Source: a virus. From it: 49,722 nucleotides of DNA. Below the pieces are notes generated by a model. The model did no database searches and was not told the origin of the DNA. It saw only the letters and a list, made by a program, of their open reading frames with translations. How positions within the stretch are numbered: the stretch's first letter is position 1; each line of letters opens with the position of its first letter. The DNA lies in the IMG/VR virus record IMGVR_UViG_3300045747_000037, positions 1 through 49,722 of that record; one strand, 5' to 3'. Position numbers and translations under genes: made by a program. Positions 14,592 through 43,533 of the stretch are shown here, in pieces.

Positions 14592-15139
14592 AGAAAATAC
14601 TAGCTCCCACTAAGCTTGACTTGGGATGTGGTTCCAAGAAGAAGGAAGGCTTTCACGGAGTAGACCAATACAAGATGGATGGTGTCGATACCGTCTTGAA
14701 GATTGGTTCTGCTAAGTGGCCCTTTGCGGATTCCTCTATTGAGGAAGCACACAGCTCTCATTTTCTGGAACACCTCACTGCATCGGAGAGGGTTCACTTT
14801 TACAATGAGCTTTACCGTGTGTTAAAACCGGGAGCTAGGGCTACCATAATCACTCCACATTGGGCATCAAACAGAGCCTACGGTGATCCCACTCATCAGT
14901 GGCCTCCCGTATCTGAAATGAGTTTCTACTATCTATCTAAAGAGTGGCGTTCAACTCAAGCACCACACACGGATATTAAATGGAACAAAGAAGGATTCTC
15001 TTGTGACTTCCAAGCTACTTGGGGGTATAGTTTCTCTCCTGAACTAGGCGCAAGGAATCAGGAGTACGTGCAGTTTGCTTTGTCTAACTACAAAGAAGCC
15101 TGTCAAGATCTCCATGCTACCCTAGTCAAACCTCTTTGA
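14585..15139 (+). CDS. Class I SAM-dependent methyltransferase
   Basis: Motif I LDLGCGS, then PFADSSIEEAHSSHFLEHL and YRVLKPGARATIITP (Methyltransf_11-like). Overlaps the glycosyltransferase gene by 7 nt. Confidence 0.75.
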   Translation: MVKKILAPTKLDLGCGSKKKEGFHGVDQYKMDGVDTVLKIGSAKWPFADSSIEEAHSSHFLEHLTASERVHFYNELYRVLKPGARATIITPHWASNRAYGDPTHQWPPVSEMSFYYLSKEWRSTQAPHTDIKWNKEGFSCDFQATWGYSFSPELGARNQEYVQFALSNYKEACQDLHATLVKPL

Positions 15140-21391: not shown

Positions 21392-22156
21392 ATGAGTAGC
21401 ACATACACGGTCACTAGGGATCAGATCATCGCTCTAGCTCTTCGCAAGATGGGTGTCTTGGAAATTGGAGATACACCAGACACCAACACTCTTAATAACG
21501 CTTCCATGTCTCTCAATCTGTTAATCAAACAGATGAGCACTGAAGGATTAAAGCTTTGGAAGAACTCCGAGTTGATCATTCCTCTTACAGCAGGACAGAC
21601 TACGTACACCTTGGGTGGTCCTACTAGTAGCCTGATGTATGACAGCTTGGCTCCATCTATTCCAATTACAGACAAGCCTTTGAAAGTTATACAAGGGTTC
21701 TATAGACGAACTACTGTTACCCCTGTCATTGATACACCAGTGATTCTGCTATCCAAGCAGGAGTACAACGTCTTGGGTTCCAAGTTCTCCACTGGTACTG
21801 CTAACAGCCTTTACTATAGTGTGAAGGTTCTTAGTGGGGTCTTGTATGTCTACCTCACACCAGACACTTACTCTCAAGGCAATTTGGAACTTCATCTTGT
21901 TGCTCAGATGCCTCTTAATGATGTCACTGCTTCTACTGATGTACCAGACTTCCCTAACGAGTGGATGAACACTCTTGTCTGGAACTTAGCTGATCAGTTA
22001 GCCATTGAGTATGGTGTCCCCATGAACTACCGCCAAGAGATCATGCAGAGGGCTATGCTCTATAAGGCACAGCTTACTGATTGGGATGTTGAAAGCTCTA
22101 GTACGTTCTTCCAACCAGACTTCCGCAGTGTTACTAATAACAGCTACGCTGGTTAA
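21392..22156 (+). CDS. Head-to-tail adaptor (P22 gp4-like N-terminus)
   Basis: TRDQIIALALRKMGVLEIGDTPD...SLNLLIKQM resembles my recollection of P22 gp4 (GDLVRAALRKLGV...). It lies directly upstream of the gp10-like gene. Confidence 0.5.
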   Translation: MSSTYTVTRDQIIALALRKMGVLEIGDTPDTNTLNNASMSLNLLIKQMSTEGLKLWKNSELIIPLTAGQTTYTLGGPTSSLMYDSLAPSIPITDKPLKVIQGFYRRTTVTPVIDTPVILLSKQEYNVLGSKFSTGTANSLYYSVKVLSGVLYVYLTPDTYSQGNLELHLVAQMPLNDVTASTDVPDFPNEWMNTLVWNLADQLAIEYGVPMNYRQEIMQRAMLYKAQLTDWDVESSSTFFQPDFRSVTNNSYAG

Positions 22157-22158
22157 GT

Positions 22159-23649
22159 ATGTCCACCGAACGCATTGCTCTTACCCAACCAATAGAGACC
22201 AGAGATGGCACTCTAACTAAAGACTCTCGCTCTACCAACTGTGTCTTTGAGACAAGGGATCAGAAGAGAGAGTTTATTAAGCGTCCCGGTCTAGTGTACG
22301 AGACACAATTAGTAGCTGTCACTCCTCCTGCGTACAAACTAAACCAAGGTCTTACTAGCTTCAATAGTAAGCTAATTGGTGTTGTTGCTGATAGTGGTGG
22401 TGCGAGTAGTACTGTTTACTCATATAACCCTCTCACTTCAGTTCAAACAGCTATTGGATCTTTGTCAACTTCTCAATCATTCGTCTACTTTACAAAGACT
22501 CCATTAGATGCCAACCTGTTCTTTCACAATAAAGTATCTGGGTACTTGTACACAAGTGGTGGTGTTTTTAGTAGTCCTGCTACCCTTCCTCCCGGTCCTT
22601 ATGTAGCTGGTACTGCTTTTTTGGATGCCTTTGTGTTTATTGGTACTGCTAATAATCGTATCTACAATAGTGCTTATCAAGACCCCTCCACTTGGGATGC
22701 TCTTAGCTACATAGCCTTTGAACAGACTACCGACACGTTGGTAGCTATCACAAAGCACTTGAACTACATCGTTGCCTTTGGTAAGGCAAGCACTCAGTTC
22801 TTCTATGACAACGGTACCTACACATCAACCACGACTCCTTTAGCTGTAGCCCAGAGCTATACGACAGAGATCGGATGTGCTCAAGGTGATAGTGTGGTAT
22901 CTACGAACAACACTGTTGTTTGGATGGGGTACTCCAAGACCAATGGTAGGTCCATCTATGTGATGGATGGTGTATCACCTATTAAGGTATCAAATCACAG
23001 CATTGACAAGATTATTGACAAGGACTCCTTAAGCAAGGTGTCTTCTTTTGCTTATAAGTTTGCTGGACATACTTTGTATGTACTTACTCTCCATGAGAGC
23101 TTGGTAACTATCGTCTATGACTTAGATGAGAAGATGTGGTACCAATGGACACAGTACTCCATTATGTCTAATGATCAACCTAATCCGGGTACTTACCAAG
23201 AGTCTTACTTTAGACCAGCCTTCTATGCCCAAGTAAACAACATCTCTTATGTCTTGGATGATGACACTGCCACTGTGTACCACTTTGATAAGAATTCTTA
23301 TCAAGATAACTCTCAATCAATCTACTGTCGCACTGTTACGGACATAGGTGACAACGGTACAACAAAGAGAAAGTTTTATGGAAGACTTGAGATTGTTGGT
23401 GACAAGGTTAGTGGTATTATGCAGGTACGCCACAGCGGAGATGACTACAACACATGGTCTTCTTACCGTTCTATAGACCTTAGTGCTTCTCGATCCCAAG
23501 TCTATCTCAGTGGCGCAGATAGACGCAGAGCTTGGGAGTTCCTTGTTACTAGTAACGTTCCTCTCCGATTAGACGGAGCAGAGATTGACTTCCGCTTGGG
23601 AGAACTAGATCAAGAACAGAACGTGGGTGGCGGTAATTACCGCCGTTAA
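22159..23649 (+). CDS. Tail hub / P22 gp10-like protein
   Basis: 496 aa. SPIKVSNHSIDKII...GHTLYVLTLHESLVTIVYD and the C-terminal LRLDGAEIDFRLGE are collinear with my recollection of P22 gp10. Confidence 0.5.
   Translation: MSTERIALTQPIETRDGTLTKDSRSTNCVFETRDQKREFIKRPGLVYETQLVAVTPPAYKLNQGLTSFNSKLIGVVADSGGASSTVYSYNPLTSVQTAIGSLSTSQSFVYFTKTPLDANLFFHNKVSGYLYTSGGVFSSPATLPPGPYVAGTAFLDAFVFIGTANNRIYNSAYQDPSTWDALSYIAFEQTTDTLVAITKHLNYIVAFGKASTQFFYDNGTYTSTTTPLAVAQSYTTEIGCAQGDSVVSTNNTVVWMGYSKTNGRSIYVMDGVSPIKVSNHSIDKIIDKDSLSKVSSFAYKFAGHTLYVLTLHESLVTIVYDLDEKMWYQWTQYSIMSNDQPNPGTYQESYFRPAFYAQVNNISYVLDDDTATVYHFDKNSYQDNSQSIYCRTVTDIGDNGTTKRKFYGRLEIVGDKVSGIMQVRHSGDDYNTWSSYRSIDLSASRSQVYLSGADRRRAWEFLVTSNVPLRLDGAEIDFRLGELDQEQNVGGGNYRR
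23545..23556. repeat. GTTACTAGTAAC palindrome, copy 5 (in the hub gene, read V-T-S-N)
   Basis: Exact string, in frame (LVTSNVPL). Confidence 0.95.
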
Positions 23650-23666: not shown

Positions 23667-24686
23667 ATGCCTAGCTATGGTGGTGGTGGAGAGGGTGGGG
23701 GGGATGGAGTAGGTGGTGGTCCCGGTTCTGGTGGCTATGGTGTAGGCAATGGAGGTGGTGCTGCTGGTTCAGGTGGCTATGGCGGCGTAGGCACAGATCC
23801 TTCTGTTGCTAGCACTAACCCAACCACTAGCACTCCCACTGGTTTACCTTCCATGCCCGGATGGGCTACTGCTGGCTTAAGTTTAGCTGGATTAGGTCCA
23901 GCAGCAACAGCCTACAACGGAATTGCAGCAGTATCACACATGAGTACAACCACTTCAGACATCTCTGGAAATAAAACCCAAAACAACAATGGGCCTAGTG
24001 GCCCTACTGGTGGTGGCGGGGGAGGTGGCCCCTTTGATGGCAACTTATCCAACATCTTAGGCATTGCTGGGGGCATCAATGGGATTATGAATCAATCAGG
24101 TGGTGGTAGCAATAGCTACCAGAATGCTGCTGATCCTTTTGCTCCTTACCGATCTGGATTAGCTGCTTCGTACAACCAAGCTCTTACCCAAGGCAATCAA
24201 ACCGACATCACCAAGATGCCGGGGTACTCTCAATTCCAATCGGGGGTAATGAACCCTGCGCTTGAGGCTACACAAGGCAAACTAGCTGCATCTGGTATGT
24301 CCATGTCAGGTACAGAGTCCCAGTCTCTTAATAAGGTGGCACAACAAGGCTACTACGGCTTTATGACTGACTACATGAATCGGTTAGCTCAGGGTAGTGG
24401 TGCTGTTAACAACCCTGCTCAAGCTGCTGGCATGGGCTTTCAACAACAGAATCAAAACCAACAAGCTACTATGCAAGGCATTGGTGCTATTGGACAAGGG
24501 TTATCTGGATTGTTTGGGGGTGGTAGTGGTAACTACAGCCCGGATATGACCGGGTTCCAATCTCCGTATCAAGCTCCATCCTACACACCTTCATTTAGTA
24601 CACCCGATACTAGTGGGTTAGGAAGTGGTGGTTATGTCCCACCTAATGATCCCGGTAGTATAGATCCAGCTTGGTTCTCCTTTTAA
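23667..24686 (+). CDS. Gly-rich / Q,N-rich internal virion (ejection) protein candidate
   Basis: SD GAAGGAG upstream, a poly-Gly N-terminus, and a position after the hub gene as for P22 ejection proteins. Confidence 0.55.
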   Translation: MPSYGGGGEGGGDGVGGGPGSGGYGVGNGGGAAGSGGYGGVGTDPSVASTNPTTSTPTGLPSMPGWATAGLSLAGLGPAATAYNGIAAVSHMSTTTSDISGNKTQNNNGPSGPTGGGGGGGPFDGNLSNILGIAGGINGIMNQSGGGSNSYQNAADPFAPYRSGLAASYNQALTQGNQTDITKMPGYSQFQSGVMNPALEATQGKLAASGMSMSGTESQSLNKVAQQGYYGFMTDYMNRLAQGSGAVNNPAQAAGMGFQQQNQNQQATMQGIGAIGQGLSGLFGGGSGNYSPDMTGFQSPYQAPSYTPSFSTPDTSGLGSGGYVPPNDPGSIDPAWFSF

Positions 24687-24698
24687 ATTGGACAGACT

Positions 24699-26027
24699 AT
24701 GGCCTACCTAATGTCCGACATGGCTGCTGGGAGTGATGCAGCCTTAAAGATGCAGCAGAACATGGCTGCTGCTCCAGATGTGAAGCAAGCTCAAAGCAAC
24801 TTCATGCAAGAGCAACAGTTAAAGATCCAACAAGAACAAGCCAATGTAGAGAAGACTCGTCTTAGTAACATGGTGTCCGAGAGTGGCTTTCAAGCTTCTC
24901 AAGATGCTAAGGCCAAGCTACAAGGGTTGATGAAGACTCCTGAATGGCAGGGGGCTGATGATGCTGAACGTCTTCGTATGGCATCTCTTGTCCAGATGGA
25001 GACAGGTGATGTCGAGGGAGGAGCAAAGACTCTGCAAGCATCTGAAGTCTTTGATGCCAAGAAAGCTGCTGCTGAACAAAAGAAGCTTGATACCCAAGCA
25101 CAAATTATCGGCAATGCTTATGGTGTCTTGGAAGCTGTTCCCAATGACAAGGTGGATGAGTTCTTTGCTCGTATGCCCAAGGCACAACAGGATGCCCTAG
25201 TCTCTCAAGTTGGTAAAGATAACTGGGATGGTATGTCTGGGGAGCAGAAGAAAGCTGCTGCTAAGAACCTAATGATGAACGCTAAGGGGCAACTAGCTCA
25301 ACAGAAGTGGTTGGCTGACTTGGTTAAGCAGAAAGAGATTGATGCTAGTCGTGAGAAGGTTGCTGAGATTACTGGCAACAGCCGTATAGCTGCCAAGACT
25401 GTTGGTGTAGGTAGTGGTACATCCAAGACTGATTTGGAAGCCTTAAAGGTTTTTCAAACACAACATCAGAAGGATCAAGTCGCTTACAAGTCTCAACAGA
25501 CTGCCTTGGTTACTGCTTACGAAGCTGCTAACCAAGAGGTTGAGAAGGATAGGTTGTTTGGCAATCTCTTTAGTGCCAAGGATGATGCTATTGGTAAACG
25601 TGATGCCATTGGTAAACGTATCCAAGACTTTGAAATCAAACAACTCAAACGAGATGTAGAGACTGCTTCTCTATTGCCTCCCGGTTCTACCAAGACTAAC
25701 ATCATGGAAGAACTAAAGAGGCGTGGTGCTCTCTTGGGTATAGATGGCAAACAAGAAGAACCTTCTACTGCTAATGTCGAGGGTAATAAGGGACTTGATA
25801 TGTCCAAGGTTACTCCTGAGCAGAAGAAGATGATGGAGTCCCAAGATCCTCAAGCTATGGCTAGAGGTGCTGCTAGGTTTGAAGCTTCCAAAGGTGGGGA
25901 TGTTCCTAGTAACAAAGGCGAAGAAGAGATCAAGAAGAAGGTCGAAGCTTCTGGTCAGAAGTACGAACCTTCAAAGTACATGTACCGCATAGCTCCCGAT
26001 GGATCAGTTCAACGTAAGGCTAAATAA
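24699..26027 (+). CDS. Coiled-coil internal virion (ejection) protein candidate
   Basis: K/Q/E/A-rich. Contains an 18-bp tandem duplication (DAIGKR x2) at 25584-25619. Confidence 0.55.
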   Translation: MAYLMSDMAAGSDAALKMQQNMAAAPDVKQAQSNFMQEQQLKIQQEQANVEKTRLSNMVSESGFQASQDAKAKLQGLMKTPEWQGADDAERLRMASLVQMETGDVEGGAKTLQASEVFDAKKAAAEQKKLDTQAQIIGNAYGVLEAVPNDKVDEFFARMPKAQQDALVSQVGKDNWDGMSGEQKKAAAKNLMMNAKGQLAQQKWLADLVKQKEIDASREKVAEITGNSRIAAKTVGVGSGTSKTDLEALKVFQTQHQKDQVAYKSQQTALVTAYEAANQEVEKDRLFGNLFSAKDDAIGKRDAIGKRIQDFEIKQLKRDVETASLLPPGSTKTNIMEELKRRGALLGIDGKQEEPSTANVEGNKGLDMSKVTPEQKKMMESQDPQAMARGAARFEASKGGDVPSNKGEEEIKKKVEASGQKYEPSKYMYRIAPDGSVQRKAK

Positions 26028-29000
26028 TGGCTTCCAACGATGGATGGGAAACAGTAGCTCCCCCTCCCACTGCTGCTAGTGCTCCTTCTGGCAATGATGG
26101 CTGGGAGACTGTTGCTCCTAGTAGCTCACAGGATGAGCCTATTAAGGCTGCTGCTAAGCCCAGTATGGGTGCTTCCTTCTTAGCTGGTACTGCCTCTGCT
26201 CTTGACTTTCCTCTCTCTGCTCCCGGCTTTGTAGCCGCTACTGCTGCTGAGTTGGCTACTACCACAGGTGGTATGTTGGCATCTCCCTTTACTGGAGAGA
26301 CTTCTAAGCAAGCCTATGGTCGTGGTGCTAAGGTGGGTGAGGCTGTTGGTGGTGCACTGATGAACCCCATGCAGAAGATCATGTCCATGTTTGATGGTGC
26401 AGAGGCTTATGCTGCTGCTCCTCTCCCACAGGCTATGTCTTGGTTTGGTGAGAAGCTACAAGCTGGTGGTAAGAAGCTTGAAGAGAAGACTGGTATCCCT
26501 TCCGAGTCAGTTCCTTTGATGGCTAACTTTGGTATGTCCGTAGCTGGTACCAAGGGTGGCGCTGCTGCTATTAGCAAAGGAAAAGAGATGGTCAAGGGGT
26601 CGGGTACCCCTGAGAGATCAAAGGCTCCTACAGGCGATATTCCACCTAAGCCTCCCGAAGATTCTTCCCCCCAAGAGAAGGCTGCTTTCATTGATGACTT
26701 GAAGAAGACTCTCAAGGAACGTGCAGACAAGCTCCCTGTTGTTGAAGCTGCTATTAGGAACAAGGAAACTGGTGCCATAGAACGTATGGGACCGAAGCAT
26801 GATGAAGCACGTAAAGCGGAAACAGTTGACACACACGAACAAGGCTTTGTTGATGAGAAGGGAAACTTTCTCACTAGGCAAGAGGCTTGGAACCGTGCTA
26901 AGAAGACTGGACAGATACCTGAAGGTCAGATCCCAGAACGTCCAAAGGAAGGCTTACACAGTGGCGACTTACGCACTGCTGGTGACGAACGGTTTAAGGT
27001 AACTCCCGAACAACCTACTGGGGAACCTAAGCCTATAGCAGAACCTACCAAGCCCGTGACTCGTGATGAGCATAGGATGGAGATTGCTAATCTCGATACA
27101 CAGATGCACGAGGAAATGATCAAGAGCCTTGAAGCTGGTATCAAGGGTGACAACGAACTAGCTGCTAGGCATGATTCCAAGTTTGCTGAGTTGCAGAAGC
27201 AGGTTGATCAGTTGAAGAAAGATATGCCTGCTGCTACCTTCAAGGACAAGGCTGCTCCTACTTGGGAAGAGGTGCATGATCTTACTTGGGATGCCAAGAA
27301 CATTGGTGAGGTGTTTGACCGTATCCAAGCTTCTGACATTGGTGGTGCAGGACAGAAGGCTCTTGTAGCTGCTCTTAACAAGTCCTCTTACATCCGTAGT
27401 ACTGGGTTCATGCCACGAGACATGCGCTTAGAATTTACAGACAAGTCTGGTACATCCCAACCTGCTATTGGGTTCTATCACCCTGACTCGCATAGCATTG
27501 ATCTTGGACAGGGTGGTGGTGTCACTACTATCCTCCATGAAGCTATCCATGCTGGTACCCACAAGCTCATTGAAGCTGGTAACACCAAGGCTGCTAAGGA
27601 ACTAACTCGTTTATATGACTTGCATAAGCAACGTGCTGAAGGTAAGTACGAGAAGGACTTGGAACAGTTCAAACTCAATAACCCCAATGCAACCATCAAG
27701 CAGCTTAAAGAGTTTGAGAAGACTAACAAGCTTGACTACGGTTTTGAGAACACACATGAGTTCATTGCAGAAGCTTTCACCAACGGTAAGTTCCGTAATC
27801 TCTTAGCTGAGATCCCTAGTGATAGCACCAAGCCTCTATCCAAGCTGAACAACCTGTGGACTAAGTTCAAGGAAGCTATTGCTGATGGCTTGGGTGTTAA
27901 GGACCGTACCTCTCTTGATGATGTCTTGGATCAGGGCATCAAGATCATTGAGAAGTCCAAGACTCTTGACAAGGCTGCTAAGGGTGATGTTACTAGTATC
28001 AAGGAGGTCACTGCTGAAGCTCTAGCCTCTAGGATGTCAAAGGACATTCATAAGGAGTTGGAGCGTGAGGGCATACCTGTAGCCCATGACTCCCCCCATA
28101 AGTTTGGGATGTTCAACTGGATCAAACATGCTCTCTCTGGTGAGGGTGCTATGGTCAAGGGTGCTGGTACATACCTGTCCACTGGGAATGTGCAGTCCAA
28201 GTACTACCATGAGATGGCTAAAGGCAGAGCTATAGAAAAGGCTGGAAACGACTTCAAAGACAAGTGGGGCTTTGATCCAATAGACCTCACCTTTATGCGA
28301 GACATGGTAAAGAAGAATGAGGATTGGGTAGCTGAACACACTCGTATGGCTGCTTACACGTATGAAGAGTATCTGGCTGACACTAACTCCAATATGTGGC
28401 GGGGTAAGACCAAGGAAGACTACAACTCATTTATAGAAGACCAAAAAGCACATGCTAAACAGTGGCAAAAAGAACTTGATAAAAAGAAACAAGAATACTC
28501 TGCTATCCCGGAGAGTGCTCGTGCAGATGCTGCTGCTTTGCGTGATACTAAGGTACCCACTTACCACTCTTCTTTAGATGCTAAACCTGAGCAGCTACTT
28601 GATTGGAACTCTACCAAGCAAAGTGGGTTGGTCAATAGAGCCTTTGAAGCATTGGGTATTCAAACCAAGACTACCATTGCTGAAGAGAAGTGGAGTTGGA
28701 CAATACAGAAGCTGGTTGGTGGTGGAGAGCAGATGATCCATCATGGAGCCTTTGTAGACTCCTCCAACAAACCCCAGAGATGGACCATCACAAGACAAGG
28801 TGCTGGGTATCGCTACACTAACAATGCTAGCCCTAGGGAAGGCATTGCACGGACACTTGAAGAGGCTAAACAAGGTGTGCGGGATAGCATTGAACAGGCT
28901 AAGGATGGAGAACGTCTATATAGTGAGTTGTCCAAGAAGTTTGAACCCCAAGGTGAAGCTCGTGGGCACCTGACAGAAGGAGAAGCTCAAAACATTGGTG

Positions 29001-31396
29001 ATACCAAGGCTTCTATTGCTCTTGCTGAACAAGGTGTTATTGGTAACGTCCACGATGCTGCTGGTGGTAAAGAGACAAAGAATCGCAACTACGTTGTCTA
29101 TGATGACACCAAGATCAAACAGAACTTCGTTGGTCTAGCTTCCAAGGCTGAAGAGATCAAACCACCCATCGACACTACCAAGACTGATCCACGTGATGTC
29201 AAGTCTCCTGAAGAGTTTCACGAGATTGCTGCTGACATCTTGGAGAAGCACGGTGAGGTTGAGGCTGTCAAGTTCTATGAGGGCTATAAGGCTTATCAAA
29301 AGACTTGGTTAGAACCTGTTGGTGAGACTGAGAAGTTTGTTGGCATGAACTTGAAGAACAAGTTAGCCAATGAACGGATCATCCATAACCAGAAGGACAA
29401 GATCCTCCAAGAGCTTCCTGATGTTAAGAGCCGTGAGCGTGTTGCTCTAGCTGTTGATGCTGGTGATCTGTCGATGCTTACTGATGCTGAGAAGGCAGTG
29501 GCTACCAAGTACTCTAACCTTGTTAGAGACATTGGTGAACGTGCTGTGGAGCATGGTGTGGTTAAGGGTCTCTTGGAAGACTACGTTACTCACATCGTTG
29601 ATTGGACTGGTGCTCCCAAGGATGCTAAGACAGAGTTCATTGAAGCATTGCTAGGAACACAACAACGTGACCCCTCAATGAGGGGGATGGATGTTACTAG
29701 TAAATTCGGTAAGCAACGTACCTTCAAGACCTTTGCTGACTTGCAAGAGTACATCGACAAGGCTAACGAACGTATTGCTGCTGCTGGTAAGTCTGACTTC
29801 CGTTTGAAGATCAAGACACACGACATCGCAGACTTGTACAAGGAGTACGCTCTCTCAATGGAGAAGGCGATTGAGAACAAGAAGCTCATTGACAACCTCA
29901 AACAGGTTCGTAACCCTGCTGGTGAACCTTGGGTACGTGAAGTAACCAAAGAAGACCCTCTGCGTAGAGGCTTTGCTCTCATTGATAGTCCTCAGTTCTC
30001 TGGGTACTCCGTGCATGAGAACATGGTCCCTGCTTTGAAGTTTGTGTTTGATGCTGGTCCCGGTGACTTGATGAAGGCTCTAGGTGCTATCTCTAACCTT
30101 ACCAAGAGGATGAACGTCATTGGTTCTTTCTTCCATGCAAAGTCTCTCATGGAAGTTATCTCTGGTTCTCAGATCCCAATCTGGTCTCCCCTCAAGGAGG
30201 TCACTCTAGGTGGTGTGGACAAGTTACTAGGAACAAAGTACTCTGGTATCACCAAGGCTGTTGATCAGTACCGTAATGGTGGTGCTGGGGATAACATTGA
30301 TCGTTGGATCAAGGAAAGTGGCTTACAGCTTGAGATCCCAGAGGATGTCTCTACTGGTGTGATCACTGCGACTGGTAAGTTTGCTGATGAGATGATTGGC
30401 AAGTACGGTCCTAAGGGCCGTGTGTTGGAGAAGTCTTTGGGTACTGTTGAGAAGTACACCTTGGGTTACTTCGATAAGTTCACTTGGGACTTCCTCCATA
30501 CTGGTGGCAAGATCATGGTGGCTGATGCCAAGTTGGATCAGGCTAGGCAACAAGCTGCTAAGGCAGGTAAACCATTTGATGAGGCTGCTGCTCGTAAAGA
30601 GATTGCTAACTTCGTCAATGACTCCTTTGGTGGATTAAATTGGTTTGATGCTGCTACTTCTGCTCGTACCAAGATTGGTAAAGAGCTAGCCATGTCTACC
30701 ATGTCTCCTCAAGGTCGTAGGGGTCTTCAGGTGTTGTTGTTTGCTCCTGACTGGACACTCTCAACATTGAGGGCGTTCACTGCTGCTCTACCTTCTAAGT
30801 TGAACCCTTTGAAGTGGCATCCTGTTGAAGGTATCAAGGGCATGACAGTCCCAACTACCAAAGCAGACTACGCTAGGTTGTACCAGTTCAAGACAGCATT
30901 GACGTACCTTACCTTGTTGAATGCTATCAATCAGATCACTGCTAACCGCAACATCTGGGACAACAAAGATCCGACTCGTATCGAGTGGCCTGATGGGACA
31001 TCCATGCAGGCAATGAAACACGCTATGGAACCCTTCCACTGGATGATGGACCCTGACAAGACGTTTGCTAACAAGCTAGGGTTTATTCCAAAGGCAATGG
31101 TTGTTGGCTTTGCTGGTGTTGAGTACGCCTCTCCTAATGCTCAGAAGCTTGTTGATCCTAGTGGTCCGGGTAGGTTGAAGGCTGTGGGTCAGATGGTTCT
31201 TCCGTTCCAAGCTCAGGCTGCTGTTGGTGCTCCTGAAGGTGAGGGTGCTAAGAGGGCGTTACTAGGAACATTGGGCTTCCCTGTCTACGGCTCTACCAAA
31301 GAGCAGAAGAAGGAAGCTAGAGCAGCACGAGAGAAGGCACTCAAGAAGGCTGCTAAAGAGTACCATCAGAAAGCTAAAGAGAAGGGTTGGGAATAA
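26027..31396 (+). CDS. Giant (1789-aa) internal virion / DNA-ejection protein with a zincin-like HExxH motif
   Basis: Longest ORF in the window. HEAIH at 27536-27550 is followed by NTHEFIAEAF. N-terminal NDGWETVAP x2. Sits in the ejection-protein position. Confidence 0.7.
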   Translation: MASNDGWETVAPPPTAASAPSGNDGWETVAPSSSQDEPIKAAAKPSMGASFLAGTASALDFPLSAPGFVAATAAELATTTGGMLASPFTGETSKQAYGRGAKVGEAVGGALMNPMQKIMSMFDGAEAYAAAPLPQAMSWFGEKLQAGGKKLEEKTGIPSESVPLMANFGMSVAGTKGGAAAISKGKEMVKGSGTPERSKAPTGDIPPKPPEDSSPQEKAAFIDDLKKTLKERADKLPVVEAAIRNKETGAIERMGPKHDEARKAETVDTHEQGFVDEKGNFLTRQEAWNRAKKTGQIPEGQIPERPKEGLHSGDLRTAGDERFKVTPEQPTGEPKPIAEPTKPVTRDEHRMEIANLDTQMHEEMIKSLEAGIKGDNELAARHDSKFAELQKQVDQLKKDMPAATFKDKAAPTWEEVHDLTWDAKNIGEVFDRIQASDIGGAGQKALVAALNKSSYIRSTGFMPRDMRLEFTDKSGTSQPAIGFYHPDSHSIDLGQGGGVTTILHEAIHAGTHKLIEAGNTKAAKELTRLYDLHKQRAEGKYEKDLEQFKLNNPNATIKQLKEFEKTNKLDYGFENTHEFIAEAFTNGKFRNLLAEIPSDSTKPLSKLNNLWTKFKEAIADGLGVKDRTSLDDVLDQGIKIIEKSKTLDKAAKGDVTSIKEVTAEALASRMSKDIHKELEREGIPVAHDSPHKFGMFNWIKHALSGEGAMVKGAGTYLSTGNVQSKYYHEMAKGRAIEKAGNDFKDKWGFDPIDLTFMRDMVKKNEDWVAEHTRMAAYTYEEYLADTNSNMWRGKTKEDYNSFIEDQKAHAKQWQKELDKKKQEYSAIPESARADAAALRDTKVPTYHSSLDAKPEQLLDWNSTKQSGLVNRAFEALGIQTKTTIAEEKWSWTIQKLVGGGEQMIHHGAFVDSSNKPQRWTITRQGAGYRYTNNASPREGIARTLEEAKQGVRDSIEQAKDGERLYSELSKKFEPQGEARGHLTEGEAQNIGDTKASIALAEQGVIGNVHDAAGGKETKNRNYVVYDDTKIKQNFVGLASKAEEIKPPIDTTKTDPRDVKSPEEFHEIAADILEKHGEVEAVKFYEGYKAYQKTWLEPVGETEKFVGMNLKNKLANERIIHNQKDKILQELPDVKSRERVALAVDAGDLSMLTDAEKAVATKYSNLVRDIGERAVEHGVVKGLLEDYVTHIVDWTGAPKDAKTEFIEALLGTQQRDPSMRGMDVTSKFGKQRTFKTFADLQEYIDKANERIAAAGKSDFRLKIKTHDIADLYKEYALSMEKAIENKKLIDNLKQVRNPAGEPWVREVTKEDPLRRGFALIDSPQFSGYSVHENMVPALKFVFDAGPGDLMKALGAISNLTKRMNVIGSFFHAKSLMEVISGSQIPIWSPLKEVTLGGVDKLLGTKYSGITKAVDQYRNGGAGDNIDRWIKESGLQLEIPEDVSTGVITATGKFADEMIGKYGPKGRVLEKSLGTVEKYTLGYFDKFTWDFLHTGGKIMVADAKLDQARQQAAKAGKPFDEAAARKEIANFVNDSFGGLNWFDAATSARTKIGKELAMSTMSPQGRRGLQVLLFAPDWTLSTLRAFTAALPSKLNPLKWHPVEGIKGMTVPTTKADYARLYQFKTALTYLTLLNAINQITANRNIWDNKDPTRIEWPDGTSMQAMKHAMEPFHWMMDPDKTFANKLGFIPKAMVVGFAGVEYASPNAQKLVDPSGPGRLKAVGQMVLPFQAQAAVGAPEGEGAKRALLGTLGFPVYGSTKEQKKEARAAREKALKKAAKEYHQKAKEKGWE

Positions 31397-32733
31397 TGCT
31401 TAACGTCCTCATCATTGATGCGACTGGTGTATGCCTAGACCTTGCTATGAGGTGCAAGGTTTATGGGCATAATGTTCGTGCATACATTCGCAACGATAGG
31501 ACTGGGGTTAGATCTCGTACTGGTGATGGACTGATTGAGCGTGTCTCTGATTGGGAAGCTCACATGAACTGGGCTGATCTCATCTTCTGTACTGACAACC
31601 TCTTCTACTTACATCAGTTGGAACGCTATAGGGACAAAGGCTACCCTATTCTTGGTCCTAGTATTGACACTAACCGTTGGGAACAAGACCGTCAGCATGG
31701 TGCAGATGTCTTTGAGAAGGCGGGTATCCCTGTCATCCCTTCTGTGGAGTTCACTAGCTATGACGATGCCATAAGTTTTGTTATCAAGAATAACAAACGT
31801 TATGTTTCTAAGCCGTTAGGTGACGGAGATAAGGCTCTTAGCTACGTATCAAAGACTGCTGCTGACATGGTGTTCATGCTTCAGAAGTGGAAGAAGAGTA
31901 ACGCCTACAAAGGTTCTTTCATACTTCAGGAGTTTCATGGTGGTATTGAGATTGCTGTTGGTGGTTGGTTTGGTAGCAATGGTTTCTCTAAACACTTCTG
32001 TATCAACCACGAGTTTAAGAAGCTACTTGCTGGGGACTTAGGAGTATCTACTGGAGAAGAAGGTACAATCTTGTACTATGTACAAGATTCTCTGTTAGCA
32101 GATAAGGTACTCAAACCATTAGAGTCAATGCTAATGGGCTTAGGGTATACCGGGTACATAGATGTCAACTGCATTGTTGATGACAAAGGTACTCCTTGGC
32201 CTTTAGAGTTCACCATGAGACCGGGATGGCCTCTCTTTATGATCCAACAAGCTCTTCATAAGGGTGATCCTTGTCAATGGATGTTAGACCTCATTGGTGG
32301 CAAAGACACTCTACGTGTCTCTGATAAGATTGCTTGCGGTGTAGTGATTACTATGCCACCCTATCCTCACGACAAGGGTACTCCTCAAGACGAACACATT
32401 GGGTATCCCATGTTTGATCTTACCGAAGAGGATGTTACTAAGAACGTTCATCTTGCTTCTGTGAAGTGGGGTACTGCTCCGGCTATGGTTGATGGTAAGG
32501 TCAAGTTGAAGCACGAGCAGTTTGTTACTGCTGGGAACTACGTTTGTATTGTTACTGGTGTAGGTGACTCTGTTGAAGGCGCTAGTGAGGATTGCTACAC
32601 CCGCATCAAGAAGAAGATCCACATACCTAATTCGATTGGGTACAGAAATGACATTGGACGTAGGTTAAAGGATCAACTTCCTATTCTCAACACTATGGGC
32701 TACTCAGACAAGGTGTACGAAGATGGCGACTAA
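31396..32733 (+). CDS. ATP-grasp protein, PurD (GAR synthetase)-like
   Basis: Collinear with PurD: LGPS...WEQDRQHGADVFEKAGIPV, NHEFKKLLAGDLGVSTGEEG, GYTGYIDVNCIVDDKGTPWPLEFTMRPGWP, and YVCIVTGVGDSVEGA...GYRNDIG. The N-terminal GGREHA-type loop is not conserved. Confidence 0.7.
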   Translation: MLNVLIIDATGVCLDLAMRCKVYGHNVRAYIRNDRTGVRSRTGDGLIERVSDWEAHMNWADLIFCTDNLFYLHQLERYRDKGYPILGPSIDTNRWEQDRQHGADVFEKAGIPVIPSVEFTSYDDAISFVIKNNKRYVSKPLGDGDKALSYVSKTAADMVFMLQKWKKSNAYKGSFILQEFHGGIEIAVGGWFGSNGFSKHFCINHEFKKLLAGDLGVSTGEEGTILYYVQDSLLADKVLKPLESMLMGLGYTGYIDVNCIVDDKGTPWPLEFTMRPGWPLFMIQQALHKGDPCQWMLDLIGGKDTLRVSDKIACGVVITMPPYPHDKGTPQDEHIGYPMFDLTEEDVTKNVHLASVKWGTAPAMVDGKVKLKHEQFVTAGNYVCIVTGVGDSVEGASEDCYTRIKKKIHIPNSIGYRNDIGRRLKDQLPILNTMGYSDKVYEDGD

Positions 32734-33139
32734 TCTACCTAATGTTCCAATACCCCAAGACAAGATTGGGGAGAGCTTTGTTTGGAGAGACTGGTTTCAA
32801 CGCCTAGGTAATCGTGTCTTTGGAAGTATGTCGGCTCAGAATACCAACGCTGTCTTTATTACTGGTGGTACTGTTGATAACACTGTTGTTGGTAGTGTTA
32901 CTCCTGCTGCTGGTACCTTTACTGCTTTAACTGGCACCTTTACTGGTGGAAGCATAAACAATACTCCTATAGGAGCAACCACTCCAAGCACTATTAAAGG
33001 TACTACAGTACAAGCTAGCACTGTTGCTGGATTTAAGAGTAGTGACGGTAGTACTGGATACACAGGAACAATAACCACTGCTTCTCTTGTTGGTAAGACC
33101 GTTACCATCAAAGATGGCATCATTACGAACATAGCATGA
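32723..33139 (+). CDS. Small fibre-like protein
   Basis: ITGGTVDNTVVGSVTPAAGTFTALTGTFTGGSINNTPIGATTPS is a fibre-type repeat. Confidence 0.55.
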   Translation: MATNLPNVPIPQDKIGESFVWRDWFQRLGNRVFGSMSAQNTNAVFITGGTVDNTVVGSVTPAAGTFTALTGTFTGGSINNTPIGATTPSTIKGTTVQASTVAGFKSSDGSTGYTGTITTASLVGKTVTIKDGIITNIA

Positions 33140-33597
33140 ACATGATCTTCTCTTCAAATGGGTTAGAGATTCTCAAACGTTTAGAGGGATTCTCTGCTAC
33201 AGCTTACCCAGATGCTGCTGGTAAGCAGACTATTGGGTACGGGCACTTAATAGTTAAAGATGATGATCTTCCTAGCACTGGGTCAATTAGCTTTGAGAAG
33301 GCTACGGAGCTTTTGGAACAGGATGTGCAGAAGGCCATTGACTGCGTAAACAACTGTGTTACTAGTAACCTCACTCAGAATCAGTTTGATGCTTTGGTGA
33401 TTTTTACCTACAATGTTGGTACCAATGCTCTTCAGAACTCAACCTTATTAGACTTGATCAATGCGGGTAAGTTGGAAGATGCTTCTGATCAACTACCTCG
33501 TTGGTGTAAGGTACATACAAAGCAAGGTGCTTTCGTTGAAATAGCTGGATTAAGAAATCGTAGGTTAGCAGAACAGGATCTATTTGATCTTGCGTAA
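33136..33597 (+). CDS. Endolysin, GH24 (T4/lambda lysozyme-type) muramidase
   Basis: LKRLEGFSATAYPDAAGKQTIGYGH...NQFDALVIFTYNVG is the catalytic E-D-T region pattern. No N-terminal signal or SAR segment. Confidence 0.85.
   Translation: MNMIFSSNGLEILKRLEGFSATAYPDAAGKQTIGYGHLIVKDDDLPSTGSISFEKATELLEQDVQKAIDCVNNCVTSNLTQNQFDALVIFTYNVGTNALQNSTLLDLINAGKLEDASDQLPRWCKVHTKQGAFVEIAGLRNRRLAEQDLFDLA
33358..33369. repeat. GTTACTAGTAAC palindrome, copy 6 (in the endolysin gene, read V-T-S-N)
   Basis: Exact string, in frame (CVTSNLTQ). Confidence 0.95.
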
Positions 33598-40289: not shown

Positions 40290-42241
40290 TATTTAACTTC
40301 TTCCATTGAAAACCAATTGATCCCGTAAGAGACACTTGCATTGAGCTTCAGTGCTAACGGGTGCTTGAATGTTTCCTTAAAGTACTTGTCTGTGTCTTGA
40401 AATACCTCCTGTACGTCCATAATAAACTCTACTACCGCCTCTTTCGTTACGTCAAACATCACGCTATCGTGAATCGTATTGACCAACAAAATCCCTTCTT
40501 TGTTCAAGAACTTCCTGAACAACACACCCAACATCATCGGAACTATGTCCCCTGTGGCTAATGATTGAACTGGGTAGTTCTTTAGCTCTGTTGGTGAGAA
40601 GTTGTACATCTTGGGAGACCAAGTACTATCATTAAAATACTCAGTAAATACAAACCTCCGACCAGTCTCAGCAGTATAAACACAAGTTCTAAACTTTTCC
40701 AATAATCCTTTACTATCGACAAGGTGTTTTGCATCTTTATCTACTATCGCAGCAAACATCCTATGCCAGTCAGCAACTTGTGGGTAGCGTTTATAGAACA
40801 CATCCACAAACTTCTTTGCTTCATCAAAGGAACACTTAGCTGATTTGGCTATTGCCTTAGCTCCTGCTCCATAAATCAGTTGAAAGCTTCTAGCCTTGAA
40901 AGGCTTACGCTCTTCTTTGGTAGGCATCCTTCCAAACATATCCTTGTAGAGCATACTGTGAATGTCACCACCATTAACGATGTCAGTGATCAGTTGCGTG
41001 TCTCTAGTAACATGGGCAAGAGCAACAACCTCTAGCTGTGAGAAGTCAACTTCAACGATGTAGCCACCTTCATACCTTGATGTGAAGATCTGTTTGATTG
41101 GGTTGTTGGAGATGTTCTGTAGGTTAGGGGAGGTTGAGCTAAGTCTTCCTGTGACTGTTGCTGTGTGGTTCAACTTACCGTAGATGTGGTCATTCATCAC
41201 ATGCTTGGACAGCCCTTGTACATAGGTTGATAGCTGCTTTGATAGCTCTCTGTACTTCAACAAGTGTTGGATCAGAACCTTGGCCCTAGGATTGAAGATG
41301 TGATCCATCATGTCAGTCAAGACATCATCATCAACAGAGATCTGACCAGTCTTGTCACTCACCTTGTCTGGATCAGGTGTGTAGTCAACCATAGGCGAGA
41401 TCGTAATGATCTCTTCTGTCAACTTGGTCTTGACCTTACCGTTCTTGTACATCCCAACTGGCTTCTTAACCATCGTCTTCTTCTTACCACCAAAGAAGCA
41501 TTGGGACCACTGCTTAGGGCTGTTGATGTCTTCAACCAAACCTGCTGCATGTTCTTCCAAGTCAAGCTTGACCTTCACATACTCGTTGACCACTTCAACT
41601 GTGTAAGAGTCGAGAGCAGCCTTGTCAATGTGAAGACCGTTGTACATCATCTCAGCAGTGGCTTGTAGAGCTTCCATCTGGGATAGGATTAAAGGTAGCT
41701 GGTCCTGCTCAACTGCTTTGTTCCATTGCTTGTAGGCTATGGCGTAAGTATTTTCAACATCTTGTTTGAGGTAAGGGACTATTTCATCAAGAGGAATCTT
41801 GTCACTGCCAATACCTGCTGTGAAGTAGGTTTTTAGCTTATCGTCTTTGAGTGGTAGTCCGTACTTGATAGACAACTCATCTAAGCTAGAGAACTTGCTA
41901 CGTTGTCCTGTAAGGATGTACTCTGCTAGTTGGGTATCCCAGATCTTTGAAGCTTGGAGAACATCCTTCATGCTTGGCTTGGTTTTATACAAGTACAACA
42001 GATCAAAAGAGAAGTTATGTCCACAGTAGGTTGCATAAGGGGAGTACCCTTTCAAAGCTACTTCAAACATGTCTGGGTCATCACAATAAGCGTGGCCTTT
42101 GCCAGTACTGTCTGTAATGCCGAAGTGAACTACCCTGTTATCAGGGTGCATAGGGTGAGCTAATCCAACATCTTCATTGCCATTGAGCGTAGTCTCTACG
42201 TCAACAGCTATGAACTGCGGTCTGGTTGTGGAAACAGTCAT
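40289..42241 (-). CDS. Family A DNA polymerase with 3'-5' exonuclease domain
   Basis: Exo I IAVDVETT, Exo II GHNFSFDLLYL, Exo III YLKQDVENTY. Motif A VEVDFSQLEVV, motif B RKPFKARSFQLIYG, motif C NTIHDSVMF. Confidence 0.92.
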   Translation of the reverse strand: MTVSTTRPQFIAVDVETTLNGNEDVGLAHPMHPDNRVVHFGITDSTGKGHAYCDDPDMFEVALKGYSPYATYCGHNFSFDLLYLYKTKPSMKDVLQASKIWDTQLAEYILTGQRSKFSSLDELSIKYGLPLKDDKLKTYFTAGIGSDKIPLDEIVPYLKQDVENTYAIAYKQWNKAVEQDQLPLILSQMEALQATAEMMYNGLHIDKAALDSYTVEVVNEYVKVKLDLEEHAAGLVEDINSPKQWSQCFFGGKKKTMVKKPVGMYKNGKVKTKLTEEIITISPMVDYTPDPDKVSDKTGQISVDDDVLTDMMDHIFNPRAKVLIQHLLKYRELSKQLSTYVQGLSKHVMNDHIYGKLNHTATVTGRLSSTSPNLQNISNNPIKQIFTSRYEGGYIVEVDFSQLEVVALAHVTRDTQLITDIVNGGDIHSMLYKDMFGRMPTKEERKPFKARSFQLIYGAGAKAIAKSAKCSFDEAKKFVDVFYKRYPQVADWHRMFAAIVDKDAKHLVDSKGLLEKFRTCVYTAETGRRFVFTEYFNDSTWSPKMYNFSPTELKNYPVQSLATGDIVPMMLGVLFRKFLNKEGILLVNTIHDSVMFDVTKEAVVEFIMDVQEVFQDTDKYFKETFKHPLALKLNASVSYGINWFSMEEVK

Positions 42242-42270
42242 GGTTTTCTGTTTGCCTTTCTATTGGTTGG

Positions 42271-43533
42271 TTATTCGTAACGGGCGACAGTAGGAACTAT
42301 CGTCACCATATATTGTCCGTGTCGTTCTGCTTCTTCTTGCTTTGGACCTCCTCCGGGTAGTTTGTTCTTAGGAACATTGATCGTCCGAATCATCTCTTCT
42401 TCGGGACTTTTGGGTTCTTTGTACTTGCCAATGGTTATCACTGCATCTGCTTCACCGGGCTTGTCAGTCTTGGAACCACGTAATGCTTCCATACCAATGA
42501 ACGGTGGGTCTTTCATCTCCACTGCTGATGCTGAGAGTTGAGAAGCTGCTATCACTGGTCCGTATGTACGAGCAAGCTCTCTAGCCCACTTGTACAACTT
42601 ACCTAGCATCTGGTCTTCTCTCTCATCACCTCTGAAGCCATCAACCTTATCCAACTGGTCAAAGACAATCATGCCGGGATTAACTTCCTTGAATAGAACC
42701 TCCAAGTCACGGATGTTATTAGTATCTTTTGTGACCCTTATCTTGTTCTTGTCTCCACCCATTAGGGCTGTGTATCTAGCCATAGCACTTGGAGTATCAG
42801 CAATAATGTCCTTGCTCTGTTCACCAAGAGCAGCTTGGACTATACGGAAGAACACTACAGCAGATTCCTCTTCGTTATTAACCCAAACCACTGGTCTGTT
42901 CTTGGGTAACTGCTGGGCTATATAGCTAATCTCACTAGCCAAGAAGGTAGTTTTACCTACCTCTACTCTAGCTGCCACGATAATGAAGTTACTAGTACGT
43001 AGAGGGCCAAGGGAACGGTTAAGGACATCCAAGCGCCACTCATACCCCGTGCTAGAAATTCGACTAGCAATCTCAGTGAGATCTGCATTGACAAATAACT
43101 CATCTTTTTCAATGTACCTTTCAACATCCTTCAAAGCATTAGTAGCTAGTAAATGAACATCCTCCAAGTCACTGCTACCTTCCTTAACTCTTTCACACTC
43201 TTCCATAATCTTAGCTAGATAATCTAACTCAATGAGAGTCTTGATTACCTCTTCATGTGCTAAATGAGGTATAAAGCTTTGAGCTTTGGTAAGAGTAATA
43301 CGCAGCTTAACCAAAGACTCTTCTGCCAATCTCTTGCTTTGATCAGCAATAAGGTATGCAGAGAATGGTTCCCAATAGAATCCCTTAACACTGGGGAATA
43401 CCTTGTAGTACTTCTCCATACCATCAAGGATTATCATTGTCTCTTTGGTTACTACATGAGGCTTGATATACCTCTTGTATCTTGTTAGATTCTCTTTGCT
43501 TTGACTGCAAAGGTGTAATACTGAATAGTCCAT
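42271..43533 (-). CDS. DnaB-like replicative helicase
   Basis: Walker A AARVEVGKTTF, Walker B MIVFDQLDKV, and an arginine-finger region ALRGSKTDK. Confidence 0.85.
   Translation of the reverse strand: MDYSVLHLCSQSKENLTRYKRYIKPHVVTKETMIILDGMEKYYKVFPSVKGFYWEPFSAYLIADQSKRLAEESLVKLRITLTKAQSFIPHLAHEEVIKTLIELDYLAKIMEECERVKEGSSDLEDVHLLATNALKDVERYIEKDELFVNADLTEIASRISSTGYEWRLDVLNRSLGPLRTSNFIIVAARVEVGKTTFLASEISYIAQQLPKNRPVVWVNNEEESAVVFFRIVQAALGEQSKDIIADTPSAMARYTALMGGDKNKIRVTKDTNNIRDLEVLFKEVNPGMIVFDQLDKVDGFRGDEREDQMLGKLYKWARELARTYGPVIAASQLSASAVEMKDPPFIGMEALRGSKTDKPGEADAVITIGKYKEPKSPEEEMIRTINVPKNKLPGGGPKQEEAERHGQYMVTIVPTVARYE

Follow-up and report, generated by a model that had tools for sequence, protein, structure and literature searches.

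The window analysed here, the whole 49,722-nucleotide stretch from position 1 to 49,722 of IMG/VR virus record IMGVR_UViG_3300045747_000037, is essentially the complete genome, about 50 kb, of a podovirus-type phage. At 31396..32733 on the + strand it carries an intact open reading frame (ORF) of 445 codons plus stop, from the ATG at 31396 to the TAA ending at 32733. We assign its product to a PurD-derived family of ATP-grasp ligases on the basis of an AlphaFold2 (AF2) model, Foldseek comparison and profile scores that lie below all curated PurD cutoffs. The original prediction, made from the sequence alone, had taken this gene for a neofunctionalised ligase rather than an auxiliary purine gene, and that core reading is supported by the fold, residues, selection and genomic context described below. 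Although an open-frame listing extends the gene upstream to a TTG (31387), alignments with its homologues, which are 441-446 aa long, begin at the ATG (31396). The public gene call for this contig (P0002) starts at M57 (nt 31564), giving 389 aa with the N domain cut off, and is too short.

The ligase gene is translationally coupled to the ORF before it, which encodes a giant protein of 1789 aa (26027..31396, + strand). At the TAATG junction (31394..31398, + strand) the TAA of the giant ORF and the ATG of the ligase have one A in common, the 1-nt overlap that had been noted at the outset; the surrounding sequence reads GGGAA-TAATG-CTT, with a purine-rich AGAAGGG upstream of the ATG. At its 3' end the ligase overlaps by 11 nt a variable 138-aa ORF (32723..33139, + strand), after which comes a phage lysozyme (endolysin) identified by family scans (33136..33597, + strand). 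The position first described, with the giant ejection protein on one side and the lysis genes on the other, is right, except that the 138-aa ORF intervenes before the lysozyme. The + strand block from about 20 to 35.5 kb contains no intrinsic-terminator-like site of note, and its promoter-like sites do not exceed shuffled expectation.

Fold and active-site residues of the ligase

The AF2 model, built from a 43-sequence alignment (pLDDT 90.4, pTM 0.90), has the four-domain N-A-B-C fold of PurD. Foldseek against the PDB returned PurD structures at ranks 1-15 (E 3e-26 to 5e-21, TMq 0.66-0.73, ~450 aligned columns), followed by a second tier of biotin carboxylase, PurK and YwfE (E ~1e-15 to 1e-16), and the best PDB sequence matches of the ligase were likewise all PurD. 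The TIGR00877 profile aligned residues 76-423 to its positions 82-422. The original prediction had described the product as collinear with PurD over the ATP-grasp core and had proposed structure prediction as a check; the profile alignment, the PDB matches and the model itself all agree with it. The ligase has the PurD fold, but its scores stop short of PurD membership: TIGR00877 gave 71.8 bits against a curated equivalog cutoff of 288, GARS_A and GARS_C stayed under their Pfam gathering thresholds (20.7 against 27 and 33.0 against 34.8), and GARS_N had no match in the Pfam scan. No PHROGs family matched the ligase, the BFVD viral structure library gave generic ATP-grasp matches only (best TMq 0.46), and the PADLOC-DB defence models had 0 matches among five family proteins, namely that of the window, two from cells and two from other phages.

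Solved PurD enzymes (EC 6.3.4.13; PDB 2YW2, 2XCL, 1GSO, 2QK4), the best structural match at TM ~0.7, have the same N-A-B-C architecture as the ligase, which is collinear with them from about residue 60 to the C terminus at ~20% identity. The two have in common the ATP-binding Lys/Glu, the acyl-phosphate Arg (R275, equivalent to human R292), an acidic residue at 206 (Glu or Asp, equivalent to human D217) and the YRxDIG motif. In contrast, the PurD N-domain loops GGREHA, PGNxG and GPExPL are all replaced; RFGDPE, GGRV and NTGGMG become R[FP]G[WY]P[LAT], Gx[YH..] and TGExG in the ligase family; and LYAG becomes xDxN, which restores the canonical ATP-grasp acidic/Asn position that PurD lacks. PurD also lacks the extra C-terminal helix of the ligase, ~15 aa ending in GY, and the ligase lacks a purine-operon context. 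PurT, PurK and YwfE/BacD use the chemistry predicted for the ligase (carboxylate plus ATP to acyl-phosphate, then amine attack), but they are much weaker matches than PurD, and the GARS_C-type C domain, specific to PurD, is present in the ligase.

Residues were mapped by aligning a family profile to solved PurDs and by direct alignment with three genuine PurDs, and were counted among 83 family representatives whose pairwise identity does not exceed 50% (mean ~30%). Kept in 75-83 of the 83 are K139, G183-x-E185, E206-x-K208, T219-G-E221-x-G223, D256-x-N258, E271-x-T273-x-R275 and R417-x-D419. The ATP-binding lysine and B-loop equivalent, K139-P-x-G-D-G-D-K146 (31810..31833, + strand; K139 in 82/83), stands where PurD has VIK-ADGLAAGKG, the family form being VSK139-PxGDGDK146, and PurD GEE becomes G183-I-E185. 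At 32011..32064 (+ strand), PurD DHKR and GPNTGGMG are represented by E206-F-K208-K209 and GVxT219-G-E221-xG (T219-G-E221-E-G223 in the window). The Mg/acyl-phosphate loop (32161..32235, + strand) has I-D256-V-N258 for LYAG and E271-F-T273-M-R275-P-G-W278-P-L280 for EFNxRFGDPE. G380-N-Y382-V (32533..32544, + strand) replaces GGRV, whose Arg corresponds to human GARS R385 in the proposed binding pocket for phosphoribosylamine (PRA) and glycinamide ribonucleotide, and YRKDIG is kept as Y-R417-x-D419-I-G. The ATP-grasp superfamily residue set, K139, E185, K208, D256/N258, E271 and R275, is near-invariant in the family.

The positions that differ are those that hold the substrates in PurD. Human GARS has been proposed to bind PRA and the acyl-phosphate through R13/E14 (in the GGREHA loop), R292, D295 and R385, and binds glycine through D217, R292, D295 and E297, with D295 as the proposed general base (PMC2978367). 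Among these the ligase family keeps just the equivalents of D217 (as Glu, E206) and R292 (R275): no counterpart of R13/E14 remains, Trp or Tyr stands in place of D295, Leu, Ala or Thr in place of E297, and Tyr in place of R385. The N-terminal GxGGREHA loop is replaced in the window by IIDATGVCLDLA, and its R/E positions vary across the family. In the RFGDPE loop, which reads R275-P-G-W278-P-L280, the Arg and Gly alone are kept (family consensus R-[FP]-G-[YW]-P-[ATL]), and at the GGRV position Tyr is present in 57 of the 83 representatives while Arg is not within the five commonest residues. Both sequence features singled out originally, the missing GxGGREHA-type loop and an FGDPE equivalent reading RPGWP, stand up in this alignment, and the PurD substrate residues, whose conservation would have pointed to an ordinary purine gene, are replaced throughout the family. 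On the active-site face the family has also gained invariant E221, D256 and N258, the last at the position of the PurT Mg ligand Glu267, where PurD has Gly.

Judged from these alignments, the nucleotide and acyl-phosphate half of the enzyme is intact and the acceptor half rebuilt, with all of the PRA-holding loops and half of the glycine site changed. Because those parts are rebuilt, a different carboxylate is expected to be joined to a different amine, and we consider it very probable that the protein is an active ATP-grasp carboxylate-amine ligase with a substrate pair other than that of PurD. Retention of E206 and R275 would possibly leave room for an amino-acid-like carboxylate. As a speculation, the acidic and aromatic residues E221, D256, W278 and Y382 would suit a cationic amine.

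Consistent with a function outside purine synthesis, a tblastn search of the window in six frames with purE, purC, purF, purM, purN, purH and purL of a real purine operon gave nothing below E 0.4, and purD alone matched, at 31534-32664 (E 9e-15). Pfam and PHROG scans of the larger window ORFs found no purine genes either, as had been stated from the first reading, and none was seen in the related viral loci inspected.

Distribution and genomic placement of the family

The ligase belongs to a very large family. A word-indexed search returned 2159 matches, the best 120 of which are all 440-450 aa long, at least 59% identical and on contigs of up to ~50 kb; an exhaustive profile search returned 3193 representatives at E<1e-3 and 460 at E<1e-30, and we put the family size at 460 clusters at 50% identity. 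In IMG/VR, 570 confirmed loci were retrieved with two peptide patterns alone, so that more than 570 is a lower bound for the family. Phage GenBank has one relative, an unannotated ORF (42140-43465) in an uncultured genome from Manatee Spring (MW202796.1). Several other records in phage collections looked like leads to cultured phages and were rejected: MT836023.1 (L089) is cellular DNA with a complete purECFMN-HDL operon, the UNVERIFIED record of Pseudomonas phage Y11 (OQ572412.1, 56957-67807) is Pseudomonas chromosome with aroQ/accB/purH/purD, and two records from Salmonella, each with an annotated purD, are contigs of bacterial genomes. The remaining distant GenBank 'phage' matches, with human-gut 'Bacteriophage sp.' and Staphylococcus records among the leads, are 22-25% identical. 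Cellular DNA inside phage-collection records such as OQ572412.1 and MT836023.1 would inflate counts of 'phage purD'.

The ligase is under strong constraint, with pairwise dN/dS of 0.04-0.09. Between close relatives it is 83-84% identical, compared with 66-73% for the DNA polymerase and 65-72% for the head-closure protein, and in farther relatives it is still 58-68% identical when the polymerase has dropped to 24-30%, making it the most conserved gene of the compared block. Many members of 740-1120 aa (P0124, P0176, P0233 and ~15 others) contain inteins with Hint and LAGLIDADG domains at two sites, one directly before T219 (GVN-C...HN-TGEMGT; window equivalent ~nt 32050) and the other between T273 and R275 (EWT-C...GN-CRFGWP; window equivalent ~nt 32215); P0233 has two inteins. 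Such placement in the most conserved catalytic motifs is typical of indispensable enzymes.

In subclade I, the type to which the window belongs, we examined 76 IMG/VR loci with a full ORF. The ligase is 441-446 aa long in 71 of them, and 70 have a same-strand upstream ORF ending within 30 nt. Stop and start overlap by 4 nt (ATGA) in 54 of these 70 loci and by 1 nt in 12, together 66/70. Where at least 1.6 kb of upstream sequence is available, the upstream ORF is 500 aa or longer in 54 of 57 loci (median 1140, maximum 1960). Among 47 loci of subclade II, 15 have the order TerL, ligase, portal ... major head protein (layout A), and 19 have head-closure Hc3, ORFs of ~250/460/570 aa, ligase and a Gly-rich fibre (layout B); the three ORF sizes of layout B are similar to those of the P22 ejection proteins. 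In two further loci (L091/L092) the ligase is followed by a MuF minor-head gene and a Mu-type prohead protease, with a 131-aa ORF between ligase and MuF in the order given for L091. Finally, on three contigs a single 1236-aa ORF directly after TerL (P0241) fuses portal (residues ~60-360), ligase (598-1020) and MuF (1107-1229), with the family signature RPGYP kept.

In the viral loci examined the ligase thus lies in the head/ejection module, in four layouts, and never among replication or nucleotide-metabolism genes, so that the original placement with late virion genes extends to hundreds of loci. The slot after the ligase is occupied in relatives by ORFs of 118-674 aa, including Gly-rich fibre-like proteins in subclade II. 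The adjacency to lysis genes is incidental, and the conserved link is to head/ejection genes: the giant ejection protein, TerL/portal and MuF. By portal identity (39%), the closest cultured relative of the window phage is Alcaligenes phage QDWS535, which is without the ligase. It has the same GNAT/354/332/giant ORF block, and its giant gene runs directly into the lysozyme; the ligase is therefore a discrete addition at the giant/lysozyme junction, dispensable for assembly.

The family also has a cellular branch. Relatives of ~430 aa on contigs of up to 1.2 Mb were found with the ligase domain of the fusion protein as query. Among the cellular matches listed, 120 of 120 are without GGREHA and carry EFT[AS]RFGYPT, TGEMGT, EHKK and GYxDxNCI, and because these are the same signature motifs we include them in the ligase family. 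NCBI names them 'phosphoribosylglycinamide synthetase C domain-containing protein' and nothing more specific. Species-representative genomes yielded at least 590 confirmed loci of the stand-alone gene in at least 590 species, spread over Hyphomonadaceae/Parvularculaceae, Acidobacteriota, Omnitrophota, Candidate Phyla Radiation (CPR)/Patescibacteria, Bdellovibrionales, Woeseiaceae, Cytophagales, Planctomycetes, DPANN and Methanosarcinales; examples (L095-L176) are Parvularcula maris NZ_JANIBC010000001.1, Hyphobacterium NZ_OZ245930.1 and Woesearchaeota PCXY01000003.1. The best 80 of these at least 590 loci are 64-88% identical to the Parvularcula protein. Chromosomal neighbours are nitroreductase, rhomboid, YchF and Pth in Parvularcula and include TBP, SRP54 and SecY in one archaeon. 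No neighbour is conserved across phyla in the cellular clade, the largest clusters being synteny within Acidobacteriota.

IMG/VR contains nothing closer than 39% to the cellular clade. In a neighbour-joining tree rooted on PurD and calculated without support values, the family is monophyletic on a long stem, and the sequences from cellular genomes group in one shallow cluster that falls within subclade II, amid phage members. We tentatively place the cellular clade inside the phage radiation, the deep diversity apparently being viral. The very high cross-domain identity together with the patchy distribution suggests horizontal spread. The neofunctionalisation is in any case old and not specific to the window phage.

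Possible roles of the ligase

Our preferred reading, held tentatively and at a little under an even chance, is that the ligase is a neofunctionalised PurD derivative made with, and probably delivered with, the internal proteins of the virion. Its translation would be coupled to that of the giant zincin-bearing internal/ejection protein; it would be packaged with internal virion proteins, be brought into the cell along with the DNA, and there, at the expense of host ATP, modify some component of host or phage that is widely conserved, a logic that would parallel T4 Alt and MuF-/portal-fused effector domains. Travel with the internal proteins and action after ejection, the step argued from analogy, is possible but somewhat doubtful. 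We regard as rather unlikely the fuller version in which a capsid-packaged ATP-grasp amide ligase, ejected with the genome and the giant zincin protein, would aminoacylate or acylate a universally conserved cellular molecule early in infection, one sub-branch having been domesticated by bacteria and DPANN/CPR.

The analogy is with MuF/portal-fused effectors, zincin polyvalent proteins (PMC5512222), T4 Alt, P1 DarB and N4 vRNAP, all of which, like the ligase, are encoded among head/internal-protein genes. Portal/MuF fusion has been taken as a hallmark of head-packaged proteins delivered with DNA (Iyer et al., 2017; PMC5512222). The ligase resembles the polyvalent-protein systems in adjoining a giant HExxH-zincin protein and in its portal-MuF fusion in one lineage, but it is usually encoded by an ORF of its own, translationally coupled, and not as part of the giant protein. 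The polyvalent-protein catalogue contains no PurD-like or amidoligase ATP-grasp domain (PMC5512222), so a packaged ligase would be a new effector chemistry.

Several observations weigh against delivery with the virion. No family member was found in a virion or in virion proteomics in the literature and phage GenBank, the family has no cultured representative in phage GenBank, and a late-operon position does not prove packaging. QDWS535 does without the ligase, which is therefore not needed for particle assembly as such. The portal-ligase-MuF fusion was found as one 50% cluster only. The Asn of the ExN motif, a Mg ligand, is Thr273 in the ligase; the invariant D256/N258 may compensate, and activity is predicted from the alignment. 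The highly conserved stand-alone clade, present in at least 590 species outside any phage context, can be explained by a general metabolic or housekeeping reaction at least as readily as by an anti-host effector.

Other explanations fit parts of the same evidence. A late-acting, unpackaged assembly enzyme, which would modify the giant protein, the portal or a MuF-type protein by amide or ester ligation or would double as an assembly factor, draws on the same placement evidence as the packaged ligase; T4 RNA ligase 1 (gp63) also serves tail-fibre attachment. Translational coupling points to synthesis of the ligase in parallel with the giant protein, and the portal-ligase-MuF fusion puts the ligase physically at the assembling portal vertex. 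We nevertheless hold this role to be unlikely, as the candidate substrates in the giant protein failed (see below), the partners are not the same in the four layouts and change rapidly, in contrast to the extremely conserved ligase, and the stand-alone cellular clade has no virion partner. That clade, with the same signature in ordinary chromosomal contexts, is the strongest point for an auxiliary metabolic gene (AMG) serving the widely shared cellular reaction of the stand-alone homologues, with the late operon as a permissive insertion site. The late regions of these phages also contain dispersed genes for other enzymes (GNAT, GT2-like, methyltransferase, AdoMet decarboxylase). The strongest counterpoints are the four independent placements in the head/ejection module, never in a replication or nucleotide-metabolism module in the viral loci inspected, and the portal/MuF fusion; the conserved stop/start coupling and the deep viral diversity around a shallow, nested cellular clade (in the tree without support values) also speak against an AMG, which we judge improbable.

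A true PurD that has simply diverged and increases purine synthesis de novo would explain the fold and collinearity, the name phosphoribosylamine--glycine ligase given to the gene by JGI, NCBI and virome AMG surveys, and the retention of R275 and E206, two of four glycine-contacting positions. It is very improbable given the TIGR00877, GARS_A and GARS_C scores, the missing GARS_N, and the family-wide replacement of the R13, E14, D295, E297 and R385 equivalents. The window has no PurF to supply PRA, whose half-life is ~5 s (PMC2978367), and no other purine gene, and NCBI PGAP does not call the cellular homologues PurD. The family is also present in CPR and DPANN lineages, which are not known to synthesise purines de novo. 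Action on the packaged genome or its counter-ions at packaging, through an acylated amine-bearing modified base or a co-packaged aminoacyl-polyamine, would suit the TerL-ligase-portal order in 15 loci, the AdoMet decarboxylase three genes downstream in one locus (L006) and the acidic/aromatic pocket predicted by alignment (E221, D256, W/Y278, Y382), which could accommodate a cationic amine. Family scans found no DNA-hypermodification genes in the window, however, the cellular homologues have no such context, and the AdoMet decarboxylase adjacency is a single case, for which reason a polyamine link was set aside; we consider this role quite improbable. Least probable of all is a catalytically dead structural protein reusing the PurD fold: the Thr in place of the ExN Asn and a B-loop unlike that of PurD would fit it, but the nucleotide- and Mg-site residues are near-invariant at ~30% mean family identity, inteins home to exactly these motifs, and dN/dS is low. 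A cell-wall precursor, one of the substrates proposed originally, has no result in its favour.

A literature search (PurD-like and phage; MuF and ATP-grasp) found no earlier description of a phage PurD-like ligase. In virome surveys viral phosphoribosylamine-glycine ligase is counted as a purine AMG, and according to one of them its copies are more numerous in viruses than in cells (PMC11360552). This 'purD AMG' label is probably wrong, and if the gene is not PurD, inferences on purine metabolism are wrong for a very abundant viral gene. What the label covers would be a large uncharacterised enzyme group in which the ligase chemistry is predicted to be intact and the substrate pocket is rebuilt; its genes are tied to the head/ejection module by four independent arrangements and recur with little change in bacteria and archaea, in hundreds of species. 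The finding joins known kinds, an ATP-grasp ligase and a virion-module enzyme, and opens no new category, but the gene is abundant, probably mis-annotated and tractable: the ligase is small and predicted to be well folded, so it is directly testable. Its substrate, once identified, would point either to injected host-takeover enzymes of a new type or to a modification of virion or DNA that is new.

The giant neighbour protein and other features of the genomes

On the + strand, the window genome has TerL, an SU10-type portal, capsid, a beta-helix tailspike, an SU10-type adaptor and a head-closure Hc3/P22 gp10-like gene, followed by ORFs of 339, 442 and 1789 aa, the ligase, the 138-aa ORF, lysozyme and a spanin-like ORF. 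The - strand encodes a family-A DNA polymerase, a DnaB-like helicase, a primase, a T7-type endonuclease I, a 5'-3' exonuclease and a CobS/CobT-like pair. The ejection block starts with the adaptor (21392-22156, + strand) and the head-closure gene (22159-23649, + strand), both identified by family scans. Between the head-closure gene and the giant ORF (23667..26027, + strand) lie the 339-aa ORF, which is Gly/Q/N-rich, and the coiled-coil-like 442-aa ORF; neither had a family match in the scans, and by position only they are presumed to be smaller ejection or internal proteins.

The giant ORF is read as an internal/ejection protein because its position after the head-closure gene fits. Its product has a zincin-like metallopeptidase region at residues 414-650 (27266..27976, + strand) with HEAIH at residues 504-508; residues 414-625 resemble a crAss-like 'RNAP associated protein fused to zincin protease' (tblastn E 2e-4), and there is a weak match to the solved tetrameric ejection protein 8vb2. 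The zincin region together with the likeness to ejection proteins fits the 'polyvalent protein' class, the HExxH zincin region being established for the giant protein of the window only.

The motif NDGWETVAP is duplicated at the N terminus of the giant protein (residues 4-12 and 23-31; 26036..26119, + strand), and nearly all giant homologues (L002-L087, L177) have two to four N-terminal copies of a short acidic/aromatic motif that is lineage-specific: NDGWETVAP, IVDPF, FDPSSAK, ISFDDLIPK, GPWxxYK, TFxGP, FVDPD or GFE[IV]V. These repeats may be a multivalent docking or capsid-targeting signal. They were considered as graspetide-like substrates of the ligase and rejected, GFE[IV]V being present three times in ligase-less QDWS535 as well. 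The C-terminal tails of the giant proteins were likewise rejected as RimK/TTL-type substrates: the NNA-TGA/ATGA overlap dictates the frequent E, Q or P at the end, and the tails are otherwise variable.

LUZ24-like phages, and QDWS535 with them, also encode an ATP-grasp enzyme, in a cassette with amidoligase, GATase-II and gamma-glutamyl cyclotransferase. That enzyme belongs to a different ATP-grasp family (~220-290 aa) and is encoded beside partner enzymes on the early or replication side of the genome, whereas the ligase studied here is solitary and in the virion module. The QDWS535 cassette (L177 35678-44432) comprises ATP-grasp, GATase-II, amidoligase, COOH-NH2 ligase and gamma-glutamyl cyclotransferase genes in the early region.

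Other genes in these genomes may be recorded. A GNAT acetyltransferase directly follows the head-closure gene in three relatives (L002 4681-5127, L090 7936-8346, L177 12778-13206), where it opens the ejection-protein block and adds a further enzyme to the internal-protein genes; the window has no such gene. Two divergent phages, L006 (9904-11159) and L007 (10842-11474), have a trypsin-like serine protease two to four genes downstream of the ligase, accompanied in L006 by the AdoMet decarboxylase, and the same L006 operon contains GT1/GT2 and B12-radical-SAM genes. Among the tail genes of the window are a weak GT2-like glycosyltransferase ORF and a methyltransferase (phrog_6636; 13860-15139, + strand), and beside its replication genes is a pair formed by an AAA_5 ATPase (CobS/MoxR-like) and a CobT/VWA protein (44412-47362, - strand). 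An Endonuclease VII-domain ORF that is mobile-endonuclease-like directly follows the major capsid gene of the window (8938-9531, + strand), and another Endonuclease VII-domain ORF is directly upstream of the ligase in L007 (7547-7999). In MW202796.1, the closest GenBank relative, an ORF annotated as 'ubiquitin' (L090 3988-4233) lies among the tail-fibre genes.

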